A DNA stretch of 64,000 nt, from the NCBI GenBank assembly GCA_964016885.1, contig OZ024741.1, positions 53,444,001 through 53,508,000 of the forward strand, given 5' to 3'. A program made the position numbers and the translations under genes. The notes beneath the pieces were generated by a model, which searched no databases, had not been told where the DNA came from, and was given only the letters and a program-made list of their open reading frames with translations. This DNA is from Eledone cirrhosa. Its lineage: Eukaryota. Positions 988 through 60,290 of this stretch are shown here, piece after piece (the stretch's first letter is position 1; each line of letters begins with the position of its first letter).

Positions 988-2974
988 TTACTTACCTTCC
1001 ATGTTCTTGTGAAGGTCGAGTTGTACGACCACCATAGTTGGTGGGGTTTCTTTTGGGAACCCCTTTAAAAGTCTTGAAGTGGGTTTTACGTTCGGGGTTC
1101 CCACGTCCCGAGGAAAGCTGTCTCGTATTTCTTTGAATATATCGAGCGACATTCGCACCAGAACCAAATCTTCCGGCACGCGAAATGTGCTCGATTTAAA
1201 AATTTCCCCCTCTTTTAGTATATTTTCACTTCGTGCTACGAGGGCCATCAGTTCCTTGTTGGCCCTCCTGACGAGCACGAAGTTTTGTATGTTTTGTTAG
1301 TGTGATTTTATTTGTTTGCCTGGCTGTGGTGGTGATGGTTTTGGTGGTGTTGTTTCGGTTGTATCAGTGTTTGTTGTGAGTGCGATGTCTGTGTTTTCAG
1401 ATGCTTGTGTGTATATTTGTTCTTGCGTCTGTTTAGGTTGTTTGCGTTTGAGGGATTCTGGTGATGGTGATGGGGGTGTTGATGTTGGTGTTATTGGAGA
1501 GATGTTTGCGTGGGTGGTGTCTGCGTATTTTATTGTGGGTGATTTTGTGCTTTGTTGATTTTTTTTTTTCTTTATGTGTTTCCTTTTTTGTATTTTGGGG
1601 GATTTGGGTTTTCCCTCATTTTCACTACTGGTAGATGAGGGGTCTGTGTCTGTAAGTGTGTCTGTATGTATGTTTATGGTTTTACTGGTGTGTCTATTTT
1701 TGGGGGGGAGGGGAAATTTGACAGCTTTCCTCGTTTCTCCCCTGGGTGTTCAATGTTGGTGGTGGTCTTTCTATTGGTGTTGTTGTTGGTGGTTTTGCCA
1801 GTGCTGGTGTTTGTTGTGGTCCTCGCCCGGGCGTCTGCAGCAGCGGAGCCTTTAGACCCCTTGCCTCTTTCAGCAGTTGTGGGCAAAAGGCTCGCAAATG
1901 GGTTTTTTACCCACAAACAAAACACTGCGGCCTTTTGCCTTCTGTAATAATGTGAATGACCGTCCCATTCTGAAGGCGGATGTGGTCCGGGATTGTCTTC
2001 ACATTCTCAGGCCTCATCTGGAGAAGGATCGCCAGGTCAGCCCCGGACCAGTCCTCTCTGGCCGTTCTGGTCACTTCTATAGGGACGGTGTCCGTCCCCT
2101 CCACAATCACATATCCCAGAAGCCACCACATGTCAAGTCCTGGTGGGATTCTGGGAATGCGGAAACGGGCCGTTCTTTTTCCCATGTGGGAGGGGTACAT
2201 TATGACCTTGCTGGTTTTGCAAGGAGTCATAGCGTGTTTCATAGCGAGGGCTTCTGACTTGAACAACACCGAAATGGTGCCGTACTGTCTGTCCCTCTCT
2301 ATGTATTCGGTGTCTTCTCTGATGCACCTCAGCGCGACTTCGACATCTTCTTGTGGGATTAAAGCTGCCCTTTTGGTTTGTGCTGAGATGCATCTATAAT
2401 GCACTGTTCTGGGCTCCACTGCCTCAATAGCTTCTACCGGGACAGTTGAGTTGGCCCAGGTTTGTTCTTGCTTGATGAGCTTCCATGCCTGGGCCAACTT
2501 TTCATCTTTGTTTGAGAGGTCCATGTTGAAGCATGGCCTCTTTTTTGCTGTTGCCGCAGCGAAAGTGTTCTTCTTGTTTTCGTTGGGTGTGTTGTGGTCG
2601 TTGTCGTTGTTCTTGTTGGTGTTGTTGTTAGCACTGTCGCTGTTATCATTGTTGTCTTTGTTGCCACCGTTGTTCTCGGTGCAGTTGGTATTTTTGCTGT
2701 TGGTGTTGTCGCTATTTGTTTTCATGTTAGTGGTGTTGATATTGTTGTTGTATTTGTTATTATTTTTGTTGTTATCTGTATTTTCGTTGTCGCTGTTACT
2801 GTCATTTTTTTCAAAATTAGAGTTCTCATTGGTATCATTGGTGTCTTTGTTTACATTGTGTGTGGTGGTGTTTGTGTTATCAATTCGTGTTAATTTCGCT
2901 GTAGCACTCCTCTCAACTTCTACGTCGTTGTCGCACGACAGCTGACATATCGCTGGGGGGCGTGGCTCAGCCAT
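988..2974 (-). pseudogene. Copy A ORF1 (N/T-rich N-terminus, putative RRM-like core, Zn knuckle), disrupted
   Basis: Starts MAEPRPP at 2974. Core YIERDRQYGTISVLF...MYPSHMGKR...DMWWL...EGKRPQCFVCG matches E2 ORF1 (FIQKDRLYGSLSIL...YPTYMGRR...EGRRPSCYLC). Ends LHKNMEGK* at 988. Confidence 0.85.
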
Positions 2975-3229
2975 GTTTTTTTTTCTCCGTAAATGTTTTA
3001 ACATGTAAAAAGAATTCAAATATTTGGGCCAAAAGGCCCAAATATTATACTTTCCCCTTCACAGGGCAAAGTCTAAGGGCTTATATCCCTTACACAACAA
3101 GAAATATTTAACAACAAATAATTTTAACAGGCAAATAAAGCGACTTACTGGGAGCGAGCAAAATACGTCCGCTTAGACCAATAATAATAATTATAATAAT
3201 ATGGAAATTATGATGACAATATGGACAAT

Positions 3230-5454: not shown

Positions 5455-5497
5455 TAGATAGATGGATGGATAGAAAGGTAACTAGATAGATAAATAA

Positions 5498-5539
<42 letters not shown>

Positions 5540-5562
5540 CGATAGATAGATAGATAGATAGA
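5455..5562. repeat. (GATA)n microsatellite at the 3' end of copy B
   Basis: Directly visible; follows the element's AATAAAGAAATC terminus. Confidence 0.95.
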
Positions 5563-5797
5563 TTTCTTTATTTGCCACAAGGGCTCACAAGAAAAGGGGA
5601 CAATACAAAAACACATGCCAGGGATTTTACATACAGTCGTGTAAAAAATATAAAACAAACAATTATAACAATCGAAATCCCCAATAGGGGGGAGGCGCCA
5701 CAAATGGGTTATTTAATACGCCGTCGATAGAACAACCCTCAACTTCAGGAGCGTGTTGTGCAAGTACCCCCTTCTTTCTTTTGCTCTCTTCTTTAAC

Positions 5798-8500: not shown

Positions 8501-8509
8501 ATATCGACC

Positions 8510-10025
8510 GTTTATTGATTTTTGGCATGGATTGCCAACGTCCTGTGAAAATTGGTTCTTTAGTTTTTGTTAGGTTTCTACCAGAACCCTTATTAGTTTG
8601 AGGTGTGGTGGAGTGTCAGATTTTACCAATGTTTTCTCCTCAGTTTCCAGTTTGGGGTCCTGGGAGATGATCTCCATTAAATTTTTATTGTTGGTGTTGA
8701 TGTTTGTATATTGTTTTTTTGTTTTGGTTGTGTTGTTTTAGTTTGTTGTTCGTCTGTGAGTTTTCTTTTTTGTGTTTGGGATGGTGTTGGTGTTTGTTTT
8801 GTTGGTAGGGGGAGGTTAGGTTGTGGTGTTGTTTGTGTTGTTGTTTGTGTCGGTGGTTGTGTGTTAGTGCTGGTGACTGCAGTTTTGGGGGTTTTGCGGT
8901 GTATCTTTTTTTGCTTTTTAGATTTCCGATGTTCTTCTTCTTCTTCACTTAAAGAAGGAGAAGCAGCCTCATCCGTTGATGAATAATCATCATCAGGAGT
9001 GTGGGGTAAGGGAATGTTGTGTCGTGATGGTGCTTCGGTGTGTGCGTTTACGGTAATGTTTGATGGAGTGGGATGGTGTGTGGTTGTGTTCTTCAGAAGT
9101 GTGGTCTGTATTTTTTCTGTTGTTGTTGGTTGAGTGTCTGTTTGTTTTGGTGTGTTTGCTCGTTTCGTCTGTTTATGTACTTGTGGTGGTGGTTGTTATG
9201 GTCTTGGTGTTTTTTTTTTAATGATGTTGTTCTGGTTTATGTGTGAAGAACAGGAGGCCTTTAGGTGTGCTGAGCTACCACAGCGAAAGTAATGAGGTTT
9301 ATACCCCTCCACCGAAATGTTTATCTTTTTGTTGTCGTCGATGACGACTTTTTCGGGTATTTTGGAGATTCTCTCCGGCTTCATCTGCATCAGAATCTTC
9401 AAATCAGTACCCGCCCACCTTTGTCTAATAGAATTCCATCAGTCTCTGGCTCCACGAAGCCAGCCAAGATCCACCAGATGTTAATGTTTGGTGGTATATT
9501 TTTTATTTTTATTTTTTTGTGTCCGTTTTCCCATGTACGTAGGGAAAAAGGTGAATGCTTTTGACACCATTGGTATCACAGAATGTTTTGGGGCGAGTGC
9601 CTCGCTTTTAAACAGTACGGAAATACTTCCGTACTGTCTTTCTCAATATTTTCTAAAGTCTCATTCAAGGTGGCCTCTATGTCTCCTTGACTCACAAATA
9701 CTGGCTTTCTCGTTGTGTTTGAGACAGTCCTGAAGGTAACTCTCCTTCGAACCGTCTCTTCTTTAATTTCGAGGGGTGAGTTGATTCTAAACCCACCCTT
9801 GTCTTCGAAAGTTACACATTTTCTACCTTGCTGGAGCATATCCCTTGCATTAGAGATGTCAAGATTTATAAAATCTTGTTTCTTGTTCACTGTTTCAGCG
9901 AAAAGCGAAAAGCATTTTTTTAGGTGTTGCTGTTGTTGTTGTTGTTGTTGTTGTCATTGTCAGCCTCGGTGTTAGAAATCGCAATTTCTTGACGAGGTGA
10001 AACTTTATCTATACATGTATCCATG
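8510..10025 (-). pseudogene. Copy B ORF1 remnant
   Basis: RVTFRTVSN and MKPERISKIPEKVVIDD...EGYKPHYFRCGSSAHLKASC are homologous to ORF1 of A and E2. Confidence 0.82.
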
Positions 10026-10499
10026 GTGTTGTTGATGTTGGCATTTTCATGTGTATGTATATGAATAGGTTTAATTTCTGTGTTTTCTGTGTTTTTCTGT
10101 GTATGTTGTGTGTTATTTTTCTTCGCTTCGACGGTAAAAATTTAAAAATGTTCAAGTGGCAATCATTTTTTCTTTGTTGACAGTCGTATACATGATGACG
10201 TCCATAGTGGCAGAAGCAGATATAACGTTAATATATACCTTTCTACCTCTCTTTACTCTGTTAACATCCTTCGGCGTTCTTTCCGAGTCACTCATTTTTT
10301 ATAGTCGGCAAAATTTGATTTTTTTTAAGAATAATTAAATTAAATGTTCGCCTCTTTAGGAGCGAAAAATGGGATTACCACCCAGCTGACAATTCAGCTT
10401 GGGGGTTAATCTACAAAATGATATGGTTTTTCAAACAATTAGTCCAGTTTTTTGTATAGAAATTAATAAAAAAGCTTACCAGCGATGTTCCACGCGTCA

Positions 10500-10500
10500 G

Positions 10501-10567
<67 letters not shown>

Positions 10568-14279: not shown

Positions 14280-14835
14280 ACCTGGACCCAACATTCCTGA
14301 AGACCCACGTCTGTTGGAATTCACGTGCAGAAATCGTAGGGGTTCACGGTTGAATATTTTCTTCGGCCTCTGGACAATTCCGTGCCCTAGACACGTTCAT
14401 TGACGCCTGCCATCGAGCATTAAACCGGTGCAACACCTGCCGGGCTGAAACCCCCCCCCCTCTGTCAGCGTGATAACATCGTCATCAAACCAACTGACAA
14501 AGGGTCGTTTGGCGCACTGACCTCTACAAAACCGAGGCGTTACAGCAACTCTGCAATCTCCTCGTTTATCGTCTTCGGCTTTCTGACCCTATCACTCTCT
14601 ACCAGCAACAAGTTTCCTCCATGTTTGGAAACTCATCGCCCCGTCCTTCCTACCCTACAGAGTCGTTTATCGTCTTCGGCTTTCTGATCCTATCACTCTC
14701 TACTAGCAACAGGTTTTCTCCATGTTCGGAAACTCATCGCCCCGTCCTTCCTACCCTACACAACCACCAACCTTATTGTCCACACATACTATTGAGTATT
14801 TCATCTGACGAAACATCTGAAACTGTAGTTACACT
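14280..14835 (+). mobile_element. Penelope-like element fragment with ~95-bp internal tandem duplication
   Basis: [27 protein letters not shown] matches the IVIKPADKG signature upstream of PLE RT. 14562-14659 is duplicated at 14664-14760. Confidence 0.7.
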
Positions 14836-18002: not shown

Positions 18003-18367
18003 TTGATGTTGCTTTGGGCTGGTTGTTTTAGGGAATACCAGGCTACAACTAGTAACCTAGGGTAATTCCAACTTTGGGCTGTTAATTTAGGGAATACCTG
18101 GCTACAACTAGTAACCTAGGGTAACTCCAACTTTGGGTCGGTTTTTAGGGAATACAGAGCTACAACTAGTAACCTAGGGTAACTCTAGCTTTCGGTCGGT
18201 TATTTTAGGGAATACCAGGTCACAACTAGTAACCTAGGGAAACACCAACTTTGGGCCGGTTTTTAGGGAATACAGAGCTACAACTAGTAACCTAGGGTAA
18301 CTCTAGCTTTCGGTCGGTTATTTTAGGGAATAACAGGTCACAACTAGTAACCTAGGGTAACTCCAAC
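18003..18367. repeat. Tandem repeat, ~59-bp unit x6, later units alternating as a ~118-bp dimer
   Basis: Core TTTAGGGAATAC....ACAACTAGTAACCTAGGG(T/A)AA recurs six times. Confidence 0.92.
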
Positions 18368-18889: not shown

Positions 18890-20945
18890 ACTTCATTACT
18901 CCAGTATTTCATGAATACAACACCATCACCACTATCTCCATCATGTCCAGAGCCTAAAAAAAAAAACAATCAAAAACAGCAACAGCACAAAAAAATGACT
19001 CTACTGCCGATGACTTGTTGCAAAAGTTTAACAAAGATAAGAATGACTCAGATGGCGCCCAAAATAGCTATTCTCTGGCTAGTGGCAGCTGTCCTCATCG
19101 ACGTTGAGGATAACACACAAAGTCAAGTCAAAAAAATCAAACTGAAAAAACTTGTCAGAACAGTGAAATCAAGAAAATGTCGCCGTAACAGTAGAGAGGA
19201 AAAAGAATAATCACCACACGTACAAAAACACACCTGCTGGCCTTATGCTCTCAACAAACCACAGACTTGACAAGATCTCCACTCCTGCCTACGCCAAATC
19301 CCACAATATTAACAAAAACTCACAAACATCAATGAGAGCAGCAGCAACAGTAGCTCAAACATCATCTGCCACGCCAGAACCAACCACAACACATCCAACA
19401 ACACTGCAAAGGAAAGATATGCGCCTCCCTAACTTGGCACATTCAGACATGAATGTAGTCATGGGGACGAGTGGGAAGCTTAATAAAAAAAAGGAAAAAA
19501 TTAAAAACTTCGCCCTCAAATAAGAAAAAAAAACCCAAACACATCACAAACATATGACATACAACACCAATCTTTAGACTACCACCAAACCCATCATCAC
19601 TACTACTACCACCACTAACCCAACATTTATGAACAGGCTCAACACAACAACGGACGCCAACAACAACATCCCAAACAAAACAAAACCCTAATCTGCAAAA
19701 AAGAAACAAAAACGCAAGCCCCCCCCCCCCCCCCCCCCCACAAACTCCACACATTGCACAGCCATAAATACAAACAACCAGAAATTAATGCAACACTTAA
19801 GACACAAGACTTCACTTACAGGAACTGATTACATCACCCCTAAAAAGATTACACTAACCGCATACAAATCATACATATCACGCAAGAAATACACACCAAA
19901 TTAAACGAAATATTCCCCAATGCAATTGGGGATATGGGCCATACAATCCAAACAGATATACTTCGACATGCTTCTGGAGGTGCCAACAACTGGCCGGAGG
20001 ATGAGATCATCACACACGCAGCCCTCCACATGAACAGGGTAAGTAATGCTTTCTCATTTGCCTTATACTTTATATAAGATGGCTTTACTCAGAATAGGCA
20101 GTATAGGCACGTGGCCTCGGGTCGGCATGGAGGCAAGGTCACATGCTCAACGACTACAAGTCACTGACGATAGAGGCGGTGGCCATCAGTGAGACCAGAA
20201 TTTTTGGTGGCTACGAGGTGTATGCATCTCCAAGCTGTCCAGATTCTGTGGTGGAGTCACTGTGTTACTTCGGAAAGGCTCGGATCTCACGATATGTACC
20301 GTCGTCCTGGACCCAGTTGGTACGTTGGTGGTGCTGGACGTGACCAGCAGCGAAGTATACGTTTTCAGGCGCCTCGACACCTTTCTACGAACGTCCCTCT
20401 CTTTAGTGTTAGTGAGTGACAGGGATGGTATCTTAGATGCAAGCTGGGACTGTGTGTAGCTAGTAGATAGAGGAAGAGGGTGTAAAAGCCTTGCTAACTG
20501 CTCAGGCATTACAACTATCTGTCAGGTACGGAATGGAGATTCCAAATGTGTCAATGTGGACATGGACAAACCGCATCGAATCATCCAGATCGTATCTAGG
20601 GTATTTTGAAGAGAAATAAATAAACCTAGCATAGGCCCTATAGAATTCAATGCATTCGACTTCACAGACAACAATTTAGTGATCTGTACAGTCGATGTAG
20701 ATAACTTTCATAAACAGGGACTTGGTTACTGGAAGCTGAATGCGTACTTTCCTACTGACACTGGATTAATGAATTAATTAAGCGGGCGTTGACGAGGACA
20801 ATAGTCAACAACAAATGGTGGTTCACCCTGAAAAGAACGATTAGAGTAGAACCGATAAGTTTTAGTAAAGGAGTAGCAAGAGAGAAAATTAAACTAAAGG
20901 GTAAAGCTAGTTAGAAAGCTGGAAGAGGTTCCTTTTGCGGCAAAG
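18890..20945 (+). mobile_element. Tx1/L1-clade element, copy D (decayed ORF1 + endonuclease part of ORF2), old
   Basis: ATG GCT TTA CTC AGA ATA GGC at 20079. HMLND, AISETRI, VLDPVGTLVVLDV, WTWTNR and GYWKLN remnants. The ORF1 boundary is approximate. Confidence 0.82.
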
Positions 20946-28228: not shown

Positions 28229-28549
28229 TTAAACTTCAAAGCTTAGTTACAACATAACAGAAGACGAACTAAAAATTGCAGACAATAACAAATATAAAAC
28301 AATATGAAAACCAAATATTCAAATTAAAAACAAAATATAACAACACCTAGGACACACAAAACAGTGTGTGTAAGAGTGAAATAGGAACCCCTACATAATA
28401 TATATTTAACAACAATACACAATATATAGGAACAGAAGCAGCCCCTGCACCACCAACTCCACATTGAACAAAATAAATATGAAAACAAATACAATAACAA
28501 TATCATCACCACCATCAAAACCACAACAGACATCAATAATATACACAAG

Positions 28550-31500
28550 TACCACCAACCCCAAGAACACCAGCACTACCACCAACACCAGCACTACCTC
28601 TAGCACCACTACTACCAACACCACCAACACCAGCACTACCTCTAGCACAACCACCACCAACACCACCAAGACCAACACTAGTTCTAGCACCAACACTACC
28701 AACACCAAAAAGACCAACACTACCACTAGCACCACAACTACCAACACCAACAAGACCAACACTACCACTAGCACCACCACTACCAACACCAAGAAGACCA
28801 ATACTACCACTAGCACCACCACAACCAACACCAACAAGACCAACACTACCTCTAGCACCACCACTACCAACACCACCAAGACCAACACTACCACTAGCAC
28901 CACCACTACCAACACCAACGAGACCAGCACTACCACTAGCACCACCACTACCAACACCACCAAGACCAACACTACCACAAGCACCACCACTACCAACACC
29001 AACAAGACCAACACTACCTCTAGCACCACCACTACCAACACCAACAAGAGCAACACTACCTCTAGCACCACCACTACCAACACCAACGAGACCAGCACTA
29101 CCACTAGCACCACCACTACCAACACCACCAAGACCAACACTACCTCTAGCACCACCACTACCAACACCACCAAGACCAACACTACCTCTAGCACCACCAC
29201 TACCAACACCACCAAGACCAACACTACCACTAGCACCACCACTACCAACACCACCAAGACCAGCACTACCACTAGCACCACCACTACCAACACCACCACC
29301 ACCAACACTACCACTAGCACCACCACTACCAACACCACCAAGACCAACACTACCACTAGCACCACCACTACCAACACCACCAAGACCAACACTACCACTA
29401 GCACCACCACTACCAACACCACCAAGACCAGCACTACCTCTAGCACCACCACTACCAACACCACCAAGGCCAACACTACCACTAGCACCACCACTACCAA
29501 CACCACCAAGACCAACACTACCACTAGCACCACCTCTACCAACACCACCAAGACCAACACTACCACTAGCACCACCACTACCAACACCACCAAGACCAAC
29601 ACTACCACTAGCACCACCACTACCAACACCACCAAGACCAACACTACCAATAGCACCACCACTACCAACACCACCAAGACCAACACTACCACTAGCACCA
29701 CCACTACCAACACCACCAAGACCAACACTACCACTAGCACCACCTCTACCAACACCACCAAGACCAACACTACCACTAGCACCACCACTACCAACACCAC
29801 CAAGACTAACACTACCACTAGCACCACCTCTACCAACACCACCAAGACCAACACTACCTCTAGCACCACCACTACCAACACCACCAAGACCAACACTACC
29901 ACTAGCACCACCTCTACCAACACCACCAAGACCAACACTACCACTAGCACCACCACTACCAACACCACCAGGACCAACACTACCACTAGCACCACCTCTA
30001 CCAACACCACCAAGACCAACACTACCACTAGCACCACCACTACCAACACCACCAACACCAACACTACCACTAGCACCACCACTACCAACACCACCAAGAC
30101 CAACACTACCAATAGCACCACCACTACCAACACCACCAAGACCAACACTACCTCTAGCACCACCACTACCAACACCACCAAGACCAGCGCTACCACTAGC
30201 ACCACCACTACCAACACCACCAAGACCAACACTACCACTAGCACCACCACTACCAACACCAACAAGACCAACACTACCACTAGCACCACCACTACCAACA
30301 CCACCAAGACCAACACTACCTCTAGCACCACCACTACCAACACCACCAAGACCAACACTACCTCTAGCACCACCACTACCAACACCAACAAGACCAACAC
30401 TACCTCTAGCACCACCACTACCAACACCAACAAGAACAACACTACCACTAGCACCACCACTACCAACACCAAGAAGACCAGCACTACCTCTAGCACCACC
30501 ACCACCAACACCAGCAAGACCAACACTACCACTAGCACCTCCACTACCAACACCAAGAAGACCAACAGTACCACTAGCACCTCCACTACCAACACCACCA
30601 AGACCAGCGCTACCACTAGCACCACCACTACCAACACCACCAAGACCAACACAACCACTAGCACCACCACTACCAACACCACCAAGACCAGCGCTACCAC
30701 TAGCACCACCACTACCAACACCAACAAGACCAACACTACCACTAGCACCACCACTACCAACACCACCAAGACCAGCGCTACCACTAGCACCACCACTACC
30801 AACACCACCAAGACCAACACTACCACTAGCACCACCACTACCAACACCACCAAGACCAACACTACCACTAGCACCACCACTACCAACACCACCAAGACCA
30901 ACACTACCACTAGCACCACCACTACCAACACCACCAAGACCAGCGCTACCACTAGCACCACCACTACCAACACCACCAAGACCAACACTACCACTAGCAC
31001 CACCACTACCAACACCACCAAGACCAGCGCTACCACTAGCACCACCACTACCAACACCACCAAGACCAACACTACCACTAGCACCACCACTACCAACACC
31101 ACCAAGACCAACACTACCTCTAGCAACACCACTACCAACACCACCAAGACCAACACTACCACTAGCACCACCACTACCAACACCACCAAGACCAACACTA
31201 CCTCTAGCACCACCACTACCAACACCACCAAGACCAACACTACCACTAGCACCACCACTACCAACACCACCAAGACCAGCGCTACCACTAGCACCACCAC
31301 TACCAACACCAACAAGACCAACACTACCACTAGCACCACCACTACCAACACCACCAAGACCAACACTACCTCTAGCACCACCACTACCAACACCACCAAC
31401 ACCAACACTACCACTAGCACCACCACTACCAACACCACCAAGACCAGCGCTACCACTAGCACCACCACTACCAACACCACCAAGACCAACACTACCACTA

Positions 31501-34500
31501 GCACCACCACTACCAACACCACCAAGACCAACACTACCACTAGCACCACCACTACCAACACCACCAAGACCAACACTACCACTAGCACCACCTCTACCAA
31601 CACCACCGAGACCAACACTACCACTAGCACCACCACTACCAACACCAACAAGAACCGCACTACCACTAGCACCACCACTACCAACACCACCAAGACCAAC
31701 ACTACCACTAGCACCACCACTACCAACACCACCAAGACCAACACTACCTCTAGCACCACCACTACCAACACCACCAAGACCAACACTACCTCTAGCACCA
31801 CCACCACCAACACCACCAAGACCAACACTACCACTAGCACCACCACTACCAACACCACCAAGACCAACACTACCACTAGCACCACCACTACCAACACCAC
31901 CAAGACCAACACTACCACTAGCACCACCACTACCAACACCACCAAGACCAACACTACCTCTAGCACCACCACTACCAACACCAACCAACCAACACTACCT
32001 CTAGCACCACCACCACCAACACCACCAAGACCAACACTACCACTAGCACCACCACTACCAACACCACCAAGACCAACACTACCACTAGCAACACCTCTAC
32101 CAACACCACCGAGACCAACACTACCACTAGCACCACCACTACCAACACCAACAAGAACCGCACTACCACTAGCACCACCACTACCAACACCACCAAGACC
32201 AACACTACCTCTAGCACCACCACCACCGACACCACCAAGACCAACAGTACCACTAGCACCACCACTACCAACACCACCAAGACCAACACTACCACTAGCA
32301 CCACCACTACCAACACCAACAAGACCAACACTACCACTAGCACCACCTCTACCAACACCAACAAGACCAACACTACCTCTGGCACCACCACTACCAACAC
32401 CAACAAGACCAACACTACCACTAGCACCACCACTACCAACACCAACAAGACCAACACTACCACTAGCACCACCACTACCAACACCAACAAGACCAACACT
32501 ACCACTAGCACCACCACTACCAACACCAACAAGACCAACACTACCTCTAGCACCACCACTACCAACACCACCAAGACCAACACTACCTCTAGCACCACCA
32601 CTACCAACACCAACAAGACCAGCACTACCACTAGCACCACCACTACCAACACCACCAAGACCAACACTACCACTAGCACCACCACTACCAACACCACCAA
32701 GACCAACACTACCTCTAGCACCACCACTACCAACACCACCAAGACCAACACTACCACTAGCACCACCACTACCAACACCAACAAGACCAACACTACCACT
32801 AGCACCACCACTACCAACACCAACCAACCAACACTACCTCTAGCACCACCACCACCAACACCACCAAGACCAACACTACCACTAGCACCACCACTACCAA
32901 CACCACCAAGACCAACACTACCACTAGCGCCACCACTACCAACACCAACCAACCAACACTACCTCTAGCACCACCACCACCAACACCACCAAGACCAACA
33001 CTACCACTAGCACCACCACTACCAACACCACCAAGACCAACACTACCACTAGCACCACCACTACCAACACCAACAAGACCAACACTACCACTAGCGCCAC
33101 CACCACTACCAACACCAACAAGACCAACACCAACAAGACCAACACTACCACTAGCACCACCACTACCAACACCACCAAGACCAACACTACCTCTAGCACC
33201 ACCACTACCAACACCACCAAGACCAACACTACCACTAGCACCACCACTACCAACACCACCAAGACCAACACTACCTCTAGCACCACCACTAACAACACCA
33301 CCAAGACCAACACTACCACTAGCACCACCACTACCAACACCAACAAGACCAACACTACCACTAGCACCACCACTACCAACACCACCAAGACCAACACTAC
33401 CTCTAGCACCACCACTACCAACACCAACAAGACCAGCACTACCACTAGCACCACCACTACCAACACCACCAAGACCAACACTACCACTAGCACCATCACT
33501 ACCAACACCACCGAGACCAACACTACCTCTAGCACCACCACTACCAACACCACCAAGACCAACACTACCACTAGCACCACCACTACCAACACCACCAAGA
33601 CCAACACTACCACTAGCACCACCACTACCAACACCAACCAACCAACACTACCTCTAGCACCACCACCACCAACACCACCAAGACCAACACTACCACTAGC
33701 ACCACCACTACCAACACCAACCAACCAACACTACCACTAGCACCACCACTACCAACACCAACAAGACCAACACTACCACTAGCGCCACCACCACTACCAA
33801 CACCAACAAGACCAACACCAACAAGACCAACACTACCACTAGCACCACCACTACCAACACCACCAAGACCAACACTACCACTAGCACCACCACTACCAAC
33901 ACCACTAAGACCAACACTACCACTAGCACCACCACTACCAACACCAACAAGACCAACACTACCACTAGCGCCACCACCACTACCAACACCAACAAGACCA
34001 ACACCAACAAGACCAACACTACCACTAGCACCACCACTACCAACACCACCAAGACCAACACTACCACTAGCGCCACCACCACTACCAACACCAACAAGAC
34101 CAACACTACCTCTAGCACCACCACTACCAACACCAACAAGACCAGCACTACCACTAGCACCACCACTACCAACACCACCAAGACCAACACTACCACTAGC
34201 GCCACCACCACTACCAACACCAACAAGACCAACACTACCACTAGCGCCACCACCACTACCCACACCAACAAGACCAACACTACCTCTAGCACCACCACTA
34301 CCAACACCACCAAGACCAACACTACCACTAGCACCACCACTACCAACACCACCAAGACCAACACTACCACTAGCACCACCACTACCAACACCACCAAGAC
34401 CAACACTACCACTAGCACCACCACTACCAACACCACCAAGACCAGCACTACCTCTAGCACCACCACTACCAACACCAACAAGAGCAGCACTACCACTAGC

Positions 34501-34735
34501 ACCACCACTACCAACACCACCAAGACCAACACTACCACTAGCACCACCACTACCAACACCAACAAGACCAACACTACCACTAGCGCCACCACCACTACCC
34601 ACACCAACAAGACCAACACTACCTCTAGCACCACCACTACCAACACCACTAAGACCATCACTACCACTAGCACCACCACAACCAACACCACCAAGACCAA
34701 CACTACCACCAGCACCACCACAACCAACACCACAA
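28550..34735. repeat. 42-bp minisatellite, roughly 147 units (consensus ACCAACACTACCACTAGCACCACCACTACCAACACCACCAAG)
   Basis: 14-triplet unit read directly. Edges are degenerate. 41-bp and 45-bp variant units occur in the right half. Confidence 0.96.
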
Positions 34736-35099
34736 CAATCAAAAACATTTACACCACCACCAACACCACCACCACCAACGACAACAACAACAACCATAAC
34801 AACATAAATGATAATAATAGTAATAATAAAAAAATGGAAACGAAACTGAAGGAAAAGGCAAAAACACAGTCGTAATAAAACTCCTAACAAACAAGAATAT
34901 AAACGTACAAGTGTATAATATATAAAAATAGAGAAGTATTGGGGAGAAGAAGAAATCCCAAATTAGTTTCGTTTGAAGTTGAAGGGAAAATAATTTTCAT
35001 GTGATTTAAAAGATTTAGACACACCCCAACTCCCCACAAAATATATAAAGTAAGCCAAAATACAATAACGGTCCAATGAAAAGCTACACATACAAACAT

Positions 35100-52643: not shown

Positions 52644-52856
52644 TTCTGTCTGTCTGCATGTCTATCCATGTATCTATAAAAAAATAATAATAAATGATTA
52701 ATAAATAAATATATCTATCTATTCACCTATCCATCCGACTGTCTTTCTGCCTATTTATCTGTCTGTCTGCCTGTCTAACTGTATATCTATCCGTCTATCT
52801 GGCTGTCTGTCTGTCTGTCTCCCTCACTCCCTCTCTCTCTCTCTTACTCTCTCTAT

Positions 52857-52942
<86 letters not shown>
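52590..52942. repeat. (ATCT)n/(GTCT)n microsatellite heading the Tx1 array
   Basis: Directly visible. Confidence 0.95.
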
Positions 52943-52946
52943 CTGG

Positions 52947-53990
52947 GACTCGTCTCACTCACCGAGCTGCAATCCTGGGTCAAGCAAAGACCGAGAAAAC
53001 TGGGCGCCTGGCACACCGAGTGTGCCCAGGCGCTCACGGCTCTCTGACAGGCGGACCCGGCTGTCAGTGGAGAATCCATCTCGTCATTCTATAGAGGGCT
53101 GGTGGTTAGCAGGTGCGACGACGCCCTCGGAGAAGCCCTAGGCATGGAGGAAGACGAACTGGCCAACCTGTTCGGTAGGACATTCAGCCCGGGACCCATG
53201 GATAACTTCCAGAGGTCCCTGGCCTGGCAATGCTACAGAAGGTCTCTGCCCGTTCGAGAAAGGCTCTACAGACACGGGCGCCCGGGTAGGGACCCCTCGA
53301 AAAAGATCTGTCCCAGATGCGTGTGCGACGAGGAAACCGTTGCACACGCATTGGTACACTGCTCGGGCATTGCCGATGTGTGGGGCTATGTCGAACAACT
53401 GCTGTCAAGGGTGGGACCGATCCGGTTGACCACTGAGTCTATTGTAACGATCAAGCCGCCTCCCCCCTTCAAAGATTAAGGAGAGGCGGTGTTTCTGTGC
53501 GTAATAGCCATGGCGAAAGAGGTTGTATGGTGGACGCGTCTGAAAGGACTGAGGTCAGACACCTTTCTCTCTGGCCAACAACTGGTCCGTTTCTTCCGAT
53601 ATCATTTCGGAAGAAGGATTAGGATGGAGAGAGAGGTGCTGCACCCCAGCCGTTTTTATGAAAGATGGGTGAAAGTGGCGAGAATGGCCCGTGTGAATGG
53701 GCCTTCACTCTACATCAGACTATAGGTGAGGAAGATGAAAGACCAAGGGAGCACCTCTTCTCTGTGCTCCCGAGGAAAAGGGTTGCACACTTTTTTCGGA
53801 GGTGTGTGCGACCCCCAAGGCGCCTCCTCCCTATTGAGGACATTGTTATAAATTTTATTTTTTGTTATATTTTATTTTATTTTTATATATTGTTATTGCG
53901 TCCTCCTTATTGAGGACGCCTTGTCTTGTAAACTCCCCCCATTGTACATGTCCCACTTTTGATGCCCTGATGGCAAATAAAAGAAACATA
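52947..53990 (+). mobile_element. Tx1/L1-clade element, copy E1 (5'-truncated, ~1.04 kb)
   Basis: Near-identical to E2 58677-59715. AATAAA at 53976. TSD TATCTATCTATCTCTGGGA on both sides. Confidence 0.96.
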
Positions 53991-54215
53991 TCTATCTATC
54001 TCTGGGATGGACACACGCGTATAACTTGCTGAGTAAGTTCTGTTTAAATTTTTATAGAAATTCTTGTCTGTAAACTTTAATTTTTGTACCATTTTGTAGA
54101 GGGACTGCCAGCTCAAACTTTGATCTGGTCAGTCGCTCAAAATATTCTACGCCTTTAGGAGTAATAGTTAAACAAAAAAAGTTTTTTTCTTGTTGAAAAG
54201 TTAACATTTTTTAAG

Positions 54216-56001
54216 ATGGCTGAAGCTTCTTCACCAAAATTCGAAGGAGGAAAGGGGAAGATAAACTTACAACTTCCCCTGCCACTGTCACAGTAGCATA
54301 GGTAAAAAACAAAGGCCAGCCAGAGGAAGGACTTTCTCCACTTGCTGACCGACAAATTGACGTTGCCATGGCAACAAACCAAAGAACCAGCGGCACCAGC
54401 AACAACAACAACAACAACGATGCGACGGACGAAAACAACACCAATAACAATAACAACAACAACAACAATAACTGTGATAACAACAACAATGATAGCAACA
54501 ACACCACCAACTACAACAGCAACACAAGCAGGGAAAGGGTCTCCTTCGCCCAGACGGCAAGGAAAACCCTCGACTGTCTGCCAGTAGATATAACCAAAGC
54601 GAAGGAGCTATTGGCAGATGCAAAAAAATATATAGTGTACGGGGAAAATGGTTCATTCGAGATCCATTCCCCCCCCGGAACTAAAAAGCCAGAGACTCCT
54701 AAACACTGTCATGTTTAGGACAATCTCGAATAAAAGCAAAAAACCAGCTCAACCATCACAGAGTGAGATAGAGCTGGTTTTAAAAGACGTCATGAAGGAC
54801 ATCACCTTCATTCAGAAGGATAGACTCTACGGGAGTCTATCCATTCTCATGAAGGACAGGGACACAGCAGTGAAACTGTCCATCAAACCAATTACATCCA
54901 CCGCATACACCTTCTACCCAACGTACATGGGTAGAAGAACACAAAAATAAAAATCCACACCATCCTGCCGATTATGGACATATGGTGGGTTTTGACAGGT
55001 TTCCTGAACCTGGATGATGACACGCTGGTGTCCATGGGAAAGCATCGGGTGACGCGTTCAGTGGAACAAGCCTCGAACTTGTAGTTCAAATGAGGCCCGA
55101 AAGGATCGCCGAGATCCCTGAACGCGTCATACTGGATGATCAAACTTTCATCAACATTACCGTTGAGGGTAGGCGGCCCTCGTGTTACCTCTGCAGAACC
55201 AGCGGTCACCTGAGGGATGTCTGTCCCCAACTTAATAAGAAAACCCCAATCTGCCTACACCACCAACAACTGCACAACCAACACAATCACCACAACTACC
55301 ACTACAAAAACAACAACCACAGCTCAAACCAAAACAAAACAACGTCGAACCCATCCTCCCCACTAAAAAAAAAAACAATTTCCAAAACACCCGCACCGCA
55401 AACACAACTCGAAAATATACCCCTCCCCTCCAACGCGGAAGATGACCCTAGTTCGTCGTCAGACGAGGAGGAGCACTTCCACACAATCAAAGGAAAGAAA
55501 AGAAAACACACCTCAGACACACAAATGAATACAACCCCTCCCCAAAACATAACACTGACACCAACACAAAAGAGCTCACCATAACAGCAAACAAAAAACA
55601 CCACAGAAAAACAAAAACATGCATACACATACATAAACACAAGAAACAAAAAACTGTTAAACATTGTGTACAACAACAATACAATAAAAACCCAAGGGCC
55701 TAACTTCACCAAGGCAGGGGATTTCCCCCACCTCAAAATGATTAAGGCCCCACAGGACACTTATAAAACTTTAAAAAACAACTTTAAAGAGGAGGTGAGT
55801 CCCCCCTGCGTCGGGCCCATTAACCGCGTCCTTCTAAAAAACTGCCCCACCCCCTCCCCAAACACCCACACAACTCCAAACACCCCAACAACACAACACA
55901 CTGATGCCCCTACGCTTCCACAAACCACCACCCCACCCAACAACCCATCCCCCACACTAATGGAAATTGTGCAGCCCGATACCCGGGACGTAGAGAGGTA
56001 A
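54216..56001 (+). pseudogene. E2 ORF1: N-rich N-terminus, nucleic-acid-binding core, CCHC knuckle, T/P-rich tail
   Basis: Starts MAEASSP at 54216. CYLCRTSGHLRDVC fits CX2CX4HX4C. Spread over several frames. Confidence 0.88.
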
Positions 56002-56025
56002 GTGCCTTTTCTCTTCACCACCAAC

Positions 56026-59000
56026 ATGGCTATGCTAAGAGTAGGCTGTTTAAATGCGCGTGGCCTGGGCTCAACTTGGAAGCAAGCAATGCTTCTAAAT
56101 GACCTCAGGTCACAACGTATAGATGTGATGGTTATTTGCGAGGCCCGGATCAGCAACGTGCGACGGCTGGCCCCCACCTTTGATGACTTTGAGATGCACG
56201 CATCTCTCTGTCAGCCCGGAGGTGGGGGTGGCGTTGTCGTTCTGCTGCAAAAACATCTGGGTCTCGCAACACAGACGGTACATTTGGATCCGGAGGGTCG
56301 ACTAGTGGTTCTGGACTTTGGCAGTGGTGAAGGCGGAGCGTTTAGATTGGTAGCCGCCTACGGCCCTTTTGGGTCAATGCGGCCGGACTTTTTCCATCGA
56401 CTGGAGACTTTTCTAGGGACGCCCCGCTCCTTGCTATTAGTGGGGGACTGGAATGGTATCCTAGATGCACGCTGGAACTACGTAGGGGCCTGTCCCGATA
56501 GAGAGGGGTGTAATAGCCTCAAAGGGTTAATCGTTCGATTTTATCTGGCCGATAGATATCGACTAGATTTTCCGACTGCGCCAACCTGGACTTGGGAAAA
56601 TCGTAGCGGATCATCTAGGTCGTACCTAGATAGGTTCTTAGTTAGAATTAAGGATAAGGACTTTTTAAGTTGTCCAAAAATGCGCATGGTTGGCTATTCT
56701 GACCACAAGTTAGTGACCTGCATGGTCAACCTTGACAGAACTCATAGACAGGGACCCGGTTACTGGAAGCTCAACTTACCGGCAAGTAAGGCTTACAGGG
56801 ACCGGATTAGCACTTTAGTTAAGGAGCGGTTGACGGGTGCCATCGTCAACAGCAGGTGGTGGGGATCTCTCAAAACAGAGATTAGAGTAGTCTCTATAGA
56901 ATTTAGTAAGGAGTTAGCCTCAAATAGAAATAGGAAGGAAAGGGAGTTGGTAGATAGTGTAGAAGAGGCAATTAGAAGCGGCGTCGTGGCCAGAGTGCTA
57001 GCGTCGAGAACGGCCCTGGGCCAGTTCTTCGACGCGAAACACGAAGGCTGCATCGTCCGAAGCAAAATACGTGCTCTGGGAAACGAGGAGACCAAAGCTG
57101 TTAGCTGGGCCCGCGTGACAGAAGCCAAAAGAGGGAGCAGATCCACTATCCAGTCTTTGCGAGACCAGGATGGACGGAAGATCCTAGAACCCAAGCAGAT
57201 GTGCGAGGCTTTTCAAAAGCACTTTGCCGGATTGTTCGGAAGGGGCGGGGAGCCGGTTGGGGATGTGGACTTCGGCCAATACCTCGACGGCCTGCCGCGT
57301 CTCTCGGACAGGGAGGCGAAGTCCTGCGAGGAGCCGAATTCAGCCACTGAGATAGAGGACGTGCTGAGCCAATGCGGCAAATACAAATCCCCGGGTCTCG
57401 ATGGTCTTCCATACGAACTATATCTAGCTATGCCGGACTTGTTCCCCGATCTCCTCGAGGCGGTCTACTGCAACTGGCAACAGAACGGGAAAATTCCCTG
57501 TGCTGTGACCAAGGGCGTAGTCACGCTAGTGAGGAAGGACGAGAACAAGGGGGACGATATAAATAATTTCAGGCCCATAACTGTGCTAAATACAGAGTTA
57601 CAGATTTTGGCCAAGGTGCTAGCAAAGAGGTTGGCGCTTGTCGTGGGCAACCTGGTGGGAGATGCGCAGACATGTGCTATGCAGTCCAGGTCCATCCACG
57701 ACAACCTGCACCTCATGCGATACATCATAGAGAGGGTTGGGAACGAACCCGGCTTTGGTGGGGCCCTGATCAACTTGGATCAATCTAAGGCATTCGATAG
57801 GGTCGACCATGGTTACTTGGATGCGGTGCTAGCGGCGGAAGGCTTCGGACCCGTTTTCAGGGGCTGGATCAATGCCATACACAGCAGCCGCATCTGCTCT
57901 AGGGTCAAGGTGAACGGCTACCTCTCGGAGCCGTTCGAAATCACGCGGTCCATCCGACAGGGGCGCCCTCTCTCCTCCCTTCTGTATGTAATGACTCTAG
58001 ACCCACTGCTGCGGAAGTTGTAGTTGTTGCAGGGCATCCCGTTGGAACCGGGATTGCGGAAAGCGGTGTCGACCTACGCCGACGACGTAATAGTAATGGT
58101 GTCTACGGCCTCGGAAATCGGGGCGATCGGCACCTTACTGGAGGAGTACGAAAGGTTTACAGGGCTAATCTGAACCGGGACAAGTCGATCGGTCTGCAAC
58201 TCGGCACGTGGAGGGGAAGATCGATGCCCTCCGATAGCGTCGTCGGGCGCTAGACGGAGGGCCCGGTGAAGTTGCTCGGGGTCTGGTTCGGACCAGACCT
58301 CCAGGTGGAGAAGAACTGAGGTGAGGTAATGAACAGGGTGTTTGCACTGACCCAGAAGTGGGCCGAGTGCAAACTGTCCCTGAAAGGTCGGGCGGAGGTG
58401 GCGAAACTTATATAGCGTCCGTCATCTACTACTGCCTGACCGTTGTGCCTTGCCCAAGGGAAACGCTCGCCAAAATGGAGCGCGCACTCTTCCAATTCCT
58501 TTGGAAGAAGCGGGCTCTTATGGCGAGGTGATCCATCTGCTGTCAACACCCTTCGAAAGGAGGGCTGGAGATGCCGTGGCTAATGATACGTAAACACGCA
58601 TTAAGGCTATGGCACCTCCAGGTATTCCTCTCCGGTTAACCGGTGTGGGCCCCGTTTGTGAGGCGAGCCTTTCCCAGACTCGTCTCACTCACCGAGCTGC
58701 AATCCTGGGTCAAGCAATGACCGAGAAAACTGGGCGCCTGGCACACAGAGTGTGCCCAGGCGCTCACGGCTCTCTGGCAGGCGGACCCGACTGTCAGTGG
58801 AGAATCCACCTCGTCATTCTATAGAGGGCTGGTGGTTAGCAGGTGCGACGACGCCCTCGAAGAAGCCCTAGGCATGGAGGAAGACGAACTGGCCAACCTG
58901 TTCGGTAGGACATTCAGCCCGGGACCCATGGATAACTTCCAGAGGTCCCTGGCCTGGCAGTGCTACAGAAGGGCTCTGCCCGTTCGAGAAAGGCTCTACA

Positions 59001-59455
59001 GACACGGGCGCCCGGGTAGGGACCCCTCGAAAAAGATCTGTCCCAGATGCGTGTGCGACGAGGAATCCATTGCACACGCATTGGTACACTGCTCGGGCAT
59101 TTCTGATCCGTGGGGCTATGTCGAACAACTGCTGTCAAGGGTGGGACCGATCCGGTTGACCACCGAGTCTATTGTAACGATCAAGCCGCCTCCCCTCTTC
59201 AAAAACGAAGGAGAGGCAGTGTTTCTGTGCGTAATAGCCATGGCGAAAGAGGTTGTATGGTGGACGCGTCTGAAAGGACTGAGGTCAGACACCTTTCTCT
59301 CTGGCCAACAACTGGTCCGTTTCTTCCGATATCATTTCGGAAGAAGGATCAGGATGGAGAGAGAGGTGCTGCACCCCAGCCGTTTTTATGAAAGATGGGT
59401 GAAAGTGGCGAGAATGGCCCGTGTGAATGGGCCTTCACTCTACATCAGACTATAG
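56026..59455 (+). pseudogene. E2 ORF2: APE endonuclease + reverse transcriptase + C-terminal CCHC
   Basis: CLNARGL, ICEAR, VGDWN, SYLDRF, SDHK; SPGLDG, FRPITVLN, LDQSKAFDRVDH, IRQGRPLS; YADD at 58075-58086; CPRCVCDEESIAHALVHC. Premature stop at 58021 and later lesions. Confidence 0.96.
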
Positions 59456-59715
59456 GTGAGGAAGATGAAAGACCAAGGGAGCACCCCTTCTCTGTGCTCC
59501 TGAGGAAAAGGGTTGCACTCTTTTTTCGGGGGTGTGTGCGACCCCCCAAGGCGCCTCCTCTCTATTGAGGATTTTGTTATATATTTTATTGTTATATTTT
59601 ATTTTATTTTTATATCTTGTTATTGCCTCCTCTTTATTGAGGACGCCTTGTTTTGTAAACTCCCCCGATTGTACTTGTCCCACTTTTGATGCCCTGATGG
59701 CAAATAAAAGAAACA

Positions 59716-59732
59716 TATCTATCTATCTATCC

Positions 59733-59802
<70 letters not shown>
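59716..59802. repeat. (ATCT)n spacer between E2 and G
   Basis: Directly visible. Confidence 0.95.
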
Positions 59803-60290
59803 AACGAGGGAGAGGCGGTTTTCCTATGTGTTATGGCTATGGTGAAAGAGCTTATATGGTGGACGAGGTTAAAAGGGCTGAGGTCAGACACCTTTCTCTC
59901 CGGCGAGCAACTGCTTCGTTTTTTCAAATATCATTTTGGAAGAAGAATCAGGATGGAGAGAGAGGTGCTGTACCGCAGCAAATTTTATAAAAGTTGGGTG
60001 AATGTGGCAAAGATGGCCCGAGTGGTTGGGCCTTCTCTCTATATAAGCCTGTAGGTTGAGGAAAAAGAGGAAGAGAGGAAGGGAGTACTCACTCTTGGTG
60101 CTCCTGGAGTTAAGGGTTGTACATTTTTTCAGGGTGTGTGCAACCCCTGTGTAACACCTCCCCCCTATTGGGGATTTCAATTGTTATTTGTTATTTTATT
60201 AATATTTTTATTTTCATATACCTGTATGTAAACTCACCATTTGTATTTGTCCCCTTCTTTTGTGCCCTTGTGGCTAATAAAGACATTTTC
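59803..60290 (+). mobile_element. Tx1/L1-clade element, copy G (5'-truncated, ~0.49 kb; 3'UTR differs from E2)
   Basis: MAMVKELIWWTRLKGLRSDTFLSG...GPSLYISL*, then AATAAA at 60276 and TCTATCTATCCATC. Confidence 0.93.

Follow-up and report, generated by a model that had tools for sequence, protein, structure and literature searches.

Consensus splice donors are kept, and re-created where they decay, at two fixed places in a group of probably Tx1-like LINEs of Eledone cirrhosa, one in the 5'UTR (donor 1) and the other at the ORF1 stop (donor 2). Comparison of diverged lineages indicates that this conserved feature is real and selected; the mechanism discussed below, binding of U1 snRNP, is a proposal. 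LINEs are usually regarded as lacking introns, and any splice sites in them as detrimental by-products. In the present elements the two donors persist in lineages down to about 25% ORF1 identity, with no spliced insertions. The window, a stretch of 64,000 nucleotides from the 3.0-Gb assembly, contains three LINE 5' ends, those of E2 (plus strand, 54002), B (minus strand, ~10501) and A (minus strand, ~3179). The motif coordinates given for these three elements in the original prediction were all correct (Table 1).

Table 1. Features of the LINEs in the window (a slash marks the exon-intron boundary of a donor).
Feature	Position	Strand	Remarks
E2, full-length two-ORF APE-RT LINE	54002..59802	+	in (TATC)n, tail (TATC)n
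DPE-like putative promoter block of E2 (GGACA, ACGCGT)	54009..54020	+	exon 1; resembles RGACGTGY
E2 donor 1, GTAAGT	54033..54038	+	5'UTR
E2 GT-AG segment, 67 nt, U-rich, candidate retained intron	54033..54099	+	ends TAG at 54099
Predicted hairpin 1 of E2	54103..54134	+	directly behind acceptor; MFE folds
ORF1 of E2	54216..56001	+	N/T-rich N-terminus, conserved domain, CCHC knuckle
E2 donor 2, AG/GTAAGT (G at 55998)	55996..56003	+	over ORF1 stop
ORF2 of E2	56026..59455	+	APE endonuclease, RT, zf-RVT; broken in window copy
B element	~5455-10501	-	internal deletion took out donor 2
B GT-AG segment, 69 nt, GTAAGC...TAG	10411..10479	-	GTAAGC at 10479, TAG at 10411
Predicted hairpin 1 of B	10375..10410	-	contains TTAAC and second CAG 94 nt from donor
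A donor GTAAGT at 3148 with candidate acceptors AAG 3089, AAG 3080, TAG 3073	3073..3148	-	(ATT)n-targeting family
A donor 2, AG/GTAAGT (G at 995)	990..997	-	phase 1 of ORF1 (Gly-Lys-stop)
Donor 2 of a further degraded relative, GG/GTAAGT (G at 20039)	20037..20044	+	

ORF2 of these elements matches PF03372, PF00078 and PF13966 in Pfam (APE, RT and a C-terminal zinc motif), and its closest PDB structure is L1 ORF2p (E 1.5e-48). A separate ORF1, which had no Pfam match, carries a CCHC zinc knuckle (CxxC-x4-H-x4-C, read from the translation); the window copy of E2 has stops and frameshifts in its reading frames. All families are high-copy, the E2 exon-2 19-mer being exact in 434 genomic copies and the end of exon 1 of A in 363. 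A (TATC)n microsatellite precedes E2 and B, and (ATT)n precedes A; one or the other lies immediately upstream in nearly all of 150 aligned copies, where more than 20% of flanks is the measure of target-sequence preference used for Tx1 (PMC4494074). Three characters of Tx1 are present, namely an APE/RT/zinc ORF2, a separate CCHC ORF1 and a target-sequence preference. In an RT tree the families of this genome form one clade (support 1.0) within a group containing Takifugu BAC82603 (0.915) and away from plant L1, and they join relatives from snRNA arrays with a support of 0.32; the tree contained no named Tx1 reference, and we regard the Tx1-like assignment as likely. The hallmarks of Penelope-like elements (GIY-YIG endonuclease, single ORF, pLTRs) are not those of these two-ORF APE-RT elements, and any comparison with Penelope is therefore functional only.

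Families occur in mixed tandem arrays, inserted in each other's microsatellite tails, with an AATAAA ~8-12 nt before the tail at every 3' end and no poly(A) (window 52848-60200; L157/L158, L224, L253). The 5'UTR, ORF1 and ORF2 types are mosaic (L226, L246, L212), F combining a G/H-like UTR with E2'-like ORFs and B4 a B'''-like UTR with a D'-like ORF1, which points to frequent recombination or template switching. A frequent SINE-like repeat ends in (ATT)n (L017:270-600, L076:340-540), and its tails are targets of family A. Elsewhere in the window, a 6-kb array of a 42-bp unit (28479-34797; 142 copies, 90% matches) carries an open 1454-aa Thr/Asn-rich frame on the plus strand, either a mucin-like exon or a minisatellite, and there are tandem repeats at 18012-18367 and 14562-14760 (58/118-bp and 101-bp units).

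Because elements nest in each other's tails, 56 and then 100 upstream stretches were sampled, along with 200 kb adjoining the window, and yielded about two dozen different 5' ends, from lineages with pairwise ORF1-domain identities of 21-87%; F, G, J, M, N and A' are each represented by one copy, and family K by three. A U1-pairing score chose non-consensus sites in several lineages, and motif counts were used instead. The P-values across lineages are optimistic, since groups share ancestry and the UTRs are mosaic against the ORF1 tree.

Within families, the signals around donor 1 are nearly fixed. Among the best 30 genomic copies of each, E2 has the donor in 29/30 and the acceptor in 30/30, B has GTAAGY and the acceptor AG in 29/30 each, and A has the donor and TAAG in 29/30 each. 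In young copies whose entire UTR is almost equally invariant, such fixation does not indicate selection. Seven diverged proximal-donor TATC lineages are more informative: all five donor columns and all three TAG columns are invariant, against 11 of 62 in the intron interior, 2 of 22 in exon 1 and 18 of 60 in exon 2. Donor and acceptor are thus conserved above their neighbourhood.

Of 12 groups, 11 have GTRAG within their first 100 nt, where dinucleotide shuffles predict 1.7 (P 2e-9), and GTRAG or GTAGG is found there in 12 of 15, against 3.1 expected (P 5e-7), in both cases among groups that share ancestry; the antisense donor motif is at chance in the same interval (3/15 groups). The groups lacking a counted donor 1 are C3 (AAG/GTTTGT in its place), K (none, 3 copies) and O (possibly truncated). 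Elsewhere donor 1 alternates among GTAAGT, GTGAGT and GTAGGT across lineages, with GTAGGT in M and GTGAGT in N. These comparisons support selection on the splice signals in lineages that have diverged from each other. Family K (L254, L256, L408), without donor 1 and with donor 2 kept in L254 and L256, provides a natural control.

Of 13 groups, 10 have a YAG 55-80 nt past the donor, where 3.9 would be expected (P 5e-4, for an interval set after looking at the data). The exceptions are N and C3, which have AAG, and M, where no AG follows 45-100 nt downstream of the donor and which is a single copy with a local duplication. GT-AG spacing is 60-77 nt in nearly all lineages, also where the donor has moved, which gives most lineages a unit shaped like a 60-77-nt intron. 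Lineage H has a textbook unit of 60 nt (GTAAGT...CTAAC...polypyrimidine...TAG). YTRAY is found 12-40 nt upstream of the AG in 9 of 20 lineages, comprising all six distal TATC lineages, E2, B and I. The branch-like GACTAAT singled out in B turned out to be present in just 9/30 B copies (ACTAAT in 22/30), with no YTRAY at that place in B', B'' and B'''. The UTRs of B and E2, which had been thought to align poorly, do align along the intron and hairpins, and the two are therefore orthologous rather than independent cases.

Besides hairpin 1, a second GC-rich hairpin is predicted after it in all TATC lineages (window 54135-54170; 10365-10340 on the minus strand), and A has a perfect 12-bp stem ahead of the ATG (window 3065-3020, minus strand). 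RNAalifold returned zero consensus pairs for 13 sequences with shifted registers, so that the hairpins rest on single-sequence folds; UTR fold z-scores range from -0.02 to -0.82. A 5' self-cleaving ribozyme (HDV-like or hammerhead) was considered and rejected, as an Rfam scan of L001, L031 and L062 gave none at E<=1 and nothing at gathering score.

Donor 1 takes one of two positions. The exon-1 block resembles RGACGTGY, the downstream promoter element described for Drosophila LINEs (PMC2377424), and the distance from this GACG/RGWYV block to the donor is either 18-24 nt (E2, B, A, I and N types) or 50-53 nt (D, D2, D', F, G, H, M). The gap between the two, ~32 nt, equals about three DNA helical turns. 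In the young family D (30/30 copies) the proximal donor has decayed to AGAAGT and a GTGAGT stands ~32 nt further on, where lineage D2 has GTAAGT; in D, D2 and D', donor 1 re-arose at the second position upon decay of the first. The old AG before hairpin 1 is present in all seven proximal-donor TATC lineages; in the distal class it is gone in 5/7 (D', F, G, H, M) and lies 35 nt from the donor in D and D2. In six of the seven distal-donor lineages a YAG follows the donor at 60-69 nt and is preceded, at 15-29 nt, by YTRAC; hairpin 1 encloses both motifs in D, D', F and G. An intron of 35 nt in D, from the new donor to the old AG, was set aside as probably too short by general knowledge.

Donor 2 (GTAAGT, GTGAGT or GTAGGT) is present in 59 of 70 distinct ORF1-stop junctions against 121 of 910 background windows, 22-45 nt before ORF2; three of the 11 junctions without it had been sampled for being mutants. 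The 59 junctions have G at -1 in 58 cases and G at +5 and T at +6 in all. In E2, a pyrimidine tract without AG follows up to the ORF2 ATG at 56026, and such a tract with no AG ahead of the ATG is found in 51/59 junctions. The site coincides with the ORF1 stop in most lineages, but its phase is 2 in E2, D, C and I, 1 in A, D' and B4, and 0 in G and H. Being kept in three ORF1 phases, donor 2 is more than a stop codon. No in-frame acceptor is common to all phases and no partner acceptor is conserved. In 7 of 14 near-full-length copies, donors 1 and 2 are the sole sense consensus donors across 5.4-5.9 kb.

Pairings of donor 2 with an acceptor were tried and rejected. Treating all of ORF2 as one large intron, bounded by donor 2 and the stop-codon TAG of ORF2, fails as this TAG is TAA in one ATT family, and the short copy L229 is an ordinary deletion. 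An ORF1-ORF2 fusion via a 42-58-nt intron would keep the frame in several lineages and break it in G/H and E2''; among 908 copies none shows such a fusion.

Among 80 loci of metagenome relatives, 44 have a usable ORF2 start, and a donor precedes it in 3/44, which is the background level; the three are L311 and L312 (one element, with AG/GTAAGT at the ORF1 stop) and L293. Two further sites in these relatives, G/GTGAGT in the 5'UTR of L280 and AAG/GTAAGT before ORF1 in L270, are leads only. So far, the two-donor system appears to be specific to the window clade. Some of the distant relatives lie within snRNA/5S arrays (U2 in L280, U1 and 5S in L286, U1 in L312), and the L280 element starts right after a short piece resembling the start of the L312 U1 match.

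Two lineage-specific arrangements at the ORF2 start deserve mention. ATA or ACA replaces the ORF2 ATG in 3/3 copies of G and H (L215, +2497; L225, +3261; L249, +3281), where ORF1 reaches up to or into the ORF2 start; a non-AUG start or an A-run frameshift is possible. D'-type spacers (L212, L252, L246, L208) have GTGAGT...TTAAC...TTTTCAG in 33-35 nt right before the ORF2 ATG, a possible acceptor, in D'-type lineages only, for an ORF2-only RNA made from donor 1.

Human L1 leaves spliced copies (SpIREs) in the genome at a rate of ~2% (131 of 6,609; PMC5860796). By exact patterns, no precisely spliced copies of the present elements were found: 0/434 for E2 (none with a non-G before exon 2, none with exon 1 followed by a non-T at +2), 0/363 for A and 0/908 for donor 2. 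Six A copies without GT all retain the intron and show that a degenerate last letter works in the pattern search; five of the 908 donor-2 sites differ at +3, through point changes, small indels and one GTGAGT variant. For B, exon 2 is preceded by TAG in all 30 pattern matches, a number of which come from overlapping loci. These tests see copies with an exact 17-19-mer, and the E2 test is blind to acceptors with GT or TT as next letters. The pooled 5'UTR result is 0/797 (upper 95% bound 0.38%; P 1e-7 at the L1 rate). The insertion template is thus the unspliced RNA. Assembled contigs from four runs of unrecorded kind (window 53985-54390) span donor and acceptor unspliced at 54017-54109 (X2, X3) and, in X4, as one 368-nt contig at 54001-54364, the only joint listed in the four runs being 54166-54230; such contigs cannot show absence of splicing and were counted neither way.

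The original prediction had proposed a splice switch, with unspliced RNA as insertion template and spliced RNA as mRNA. Its first half is borne out by the copies. Its second half, a putative spliced mRNA, is not required to free translation, as the candidate intron contains no ATG in 17 of 20 lineages. That the intron holds the internal promoter is likewise unsupported, because the shared ACGCGT, which resembles the DPE RGACGTGY (PMC2377424), lies in exon 1, where splicing would not remove it. With an intron ATG in 3/20 lineages only and the DPE-like block in exon 1, neither translation nor promoter needs a switch. The other option raised at the time, U1 recruitment, fits best, and it is extended by the mostly acceptor-less donor 2 at the ORF1 stop.

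We therefore favor, with about even confidence, the reading that donors 1 and 2 are selected U1 snRNP landing sites that would prevent early Pol II termination while the intron stays in the template RNA. Three features point to U1 binding as the selected function: an orphan donor 2, variation compatible with U1 and an ORF1 rich in poly(A) signals. The donors vary as U1 pairing tolerates, with A/G at +3 or +4, and AG/GTTTGT given a strong exon side. Sense AATAAA stands at 54729, 54946 and 55683 in E2 ORF1; over the ORF1 region there are 35 in sense against 1 in antisense, and 1.4 per kb against 0.13 in ORF2; other hexamers of the same composition number 29-68, and AATAAA, with 36, falls among them. 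Restrictor is blocked by a 5'SS even when no splicing takes place, and splicing competence adds protection (PMC12211998); the latter would explain why the acceptor is usually kept. Consensus 5'SS are also described as shielding TE-containing RNA from Su(s) (PMC4691828), and U1 as suppressing premature termination of unspliced Copia EVD RNA (PMC5580714).

The proposed sequence of events would be as follows. TFIID would read the DPE-like block, and transcription would begin at or just upstream of the element boundary. U1 would bind donor 1, aided by the U-rich tract, and block Restrictor/Su(s)-type attenuation as well as premature cleavage at the ORF1 AATAAAs. Some 2 kb on, typically 140-330 nt past the last ORF1 poly(A) signal and before ORF2, donor 2 would renew the protection. 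The 60-77-nt GT-AG spacing would make an intron-shaped unit that the spliceosome can engage, with excision kept rare, probably by a predicted hairpin 1 that lies directly against the acceptor in E2 and B and encloses both branch point and acceptor in D, D', F and G. The intron-retaining RNA would serve as both mRNA and template. In its most specific form, to which we give somewhat less than even confidence, this amounts to a two-site U1 decoy: a 5' intron-shaped unit with its acceptor shut by a hairpin, plus an orphan donor at the ORF1 stop, would let an intronless element pass as an intron-containing gene and escape Restrictor/Su(s) attenuation and premature polyadenylation without ever splicing, a decayed donor being replaced 32 nt away.

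Several observations speak against U1 landing sites. The acceptors also look selected and would be unneeded for U1 binding alone. Family K does without donor 1. Donor 1 has a weak exon side, mostly without G at -1, which leaves about 6 U1 pairs, and is largely paired in predicted folds. The ~32-nt step of three helical turns and the presence of a donor before ORF2 in only 3/44 metagenome relatives also count against it. In addition, unpaired 5'SS motifs can cause nuclear retention, which a LINE mRNA must avoid.

One alternative is a true, routinely excised 5'UTR intron like that of Penelope. Spliced RNA would be exported and translated, and ORF2p would act in trans on nuclear unspliced RNA via its 3' tail, so that only intron-containing copies insert. 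The donor-acceptor spacing retained even after the donor moved, the textbook unit of lineage H (60 nt) and the disappearance of the old AG once too near the donor all agree with this. The Penelope intron (75 nt, 46 nt from the start) is removed from most transcripts, is required for protein production and persists in inserted copies (PMC2377424), and the proteins of Tx1 elements probably act in trans to mobilise other RNAs (PMC4494074). Such a scheme demands, however, a near-perfect exclusion of translated RNA from insertion (<0.4%), and it conflicts with the preference for acting in cis that L1-type proteins have (PMC5860796). The intron that it removes usually holds no ATG, and lineage M (single copy) lacks the acceptor. 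Donor 2 stays unexplained, having no AG before the ATG in 51/59 junctions and no in-frame acceptor in G/H or E2''. We consider routine excision unlikely overall; in its favor, the acceptor spacing follows the donor, and in Penelope an intron laid out in the same way is genuinely spliced (PMC2377424; PMC8557442).

The helical-turn spacing raises another alternative, in which donor 1 is a DNA promoter element, a transcription-factor site resembling a donor, while promoter or nucleosome features account for the T-rich segment and TAG. Such a site would suit the constant distance of donor 1 from the DPE-like block (18-24 or 50-53 nt, ~three helical turns apart), its poor exon-side consensus and the lack of spliced copies; the L1 donor lying in a RUNX3 site is a precedent (PMC5860796). 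A promoter element is nevertheless improbable, as the motif appears again 2 kb further on, in full AG/GT context at the stop of ORF1, its variants (GTAAGT, GTGAGT, GTAGGT, AG/GTTTGT) are those tolerated by U1 pairing, and it is sense-specific (antisense 3/15, chance level). It is more improbable still that donor 2 is only a conserved stop-codon or reinitiation context (G-TAA/TGA/TAG-GT) and donor 1 with its AG functionless inherited baggage: the three common variants do all hold a stop triplet at +2..+4, which is the ORF1 stop in most lineages, and shared ancestry makes the P-values overstate independence, but the motif is also retained in phases 0 and 1, in which this triplet does not serve as the ORF1 stop, donor 1 is invariant against 2/22 columns in exon 1, and it re-arose elsewhere after decay (D, D2, D').

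If the donors are U1 landing sites, these LINEs would represent a natural evolved counter to 5'SS-sensitive termination. They would also provide a compact test system, one 100-nt module with naturally moved and lost donors, for asking how an RNA without introns is taken for that of a gene. Should the intron be spliced, Penelope-type intron retention would extend to APE LINEs and cis preference would be broken. Either way, thousands of inserted strong donors can influence host splicing. Functional splice sites have reportedly been found in zebrafish L2 elements. In the open-access full-text literature, we found no conserved donors for Tx1-like LINEs or at a LINE ORF1/ORF2 junction, and in the literature consulted no LINE family was found to have evolved 5'SS sites that protect against termination.

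Among known systems, Kibi and Koshi of Tx1 are likewise two-ORF, APE-RT and microsatellite-targeting (PMC4494074), whereas the targets of the window LINEs are (TATC)n and (ATT)n. The Ty1/Copia element EVD is an LTR element whose intron is spliced for a short gag mRNA (PMC5580714), while donor 2 here has no conserved acceptor. Human L1 also has a conserved 5'UTR donor, and most of its transcripts escape splicing; its donor is explained by a RUNX3 site, and it has ~2% spliced copies and introns of 500-900 nt (PMC5860796). The window LINEs differ in a full consensus donor, two positions, an AG 60-77 nt away and 0/797 spliced copies. Penelope shares with them a short 5' intron (75 nt, 46 nt from the start), a DPE-type promoter and conserved splice sites, retained after retrotransposition (PMC2377424; PMC8557442). 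It is a PLE, with GIY-YIG/RT and outside the LINEs, and its splicing was shown by RT-PCR; the window elements are two-ORF APE-RT LINEs with a candidate intron, plus donor 2. A functional parallel to the proposed role is found with Restrictor (ZC3H4-WDR82) and Su(s): a promoter-proximal 5'SS on nascent RNA protects against early termination without splicing, as established for genes, reporters and engineered alleles (PMC12211998; PMC4691828).
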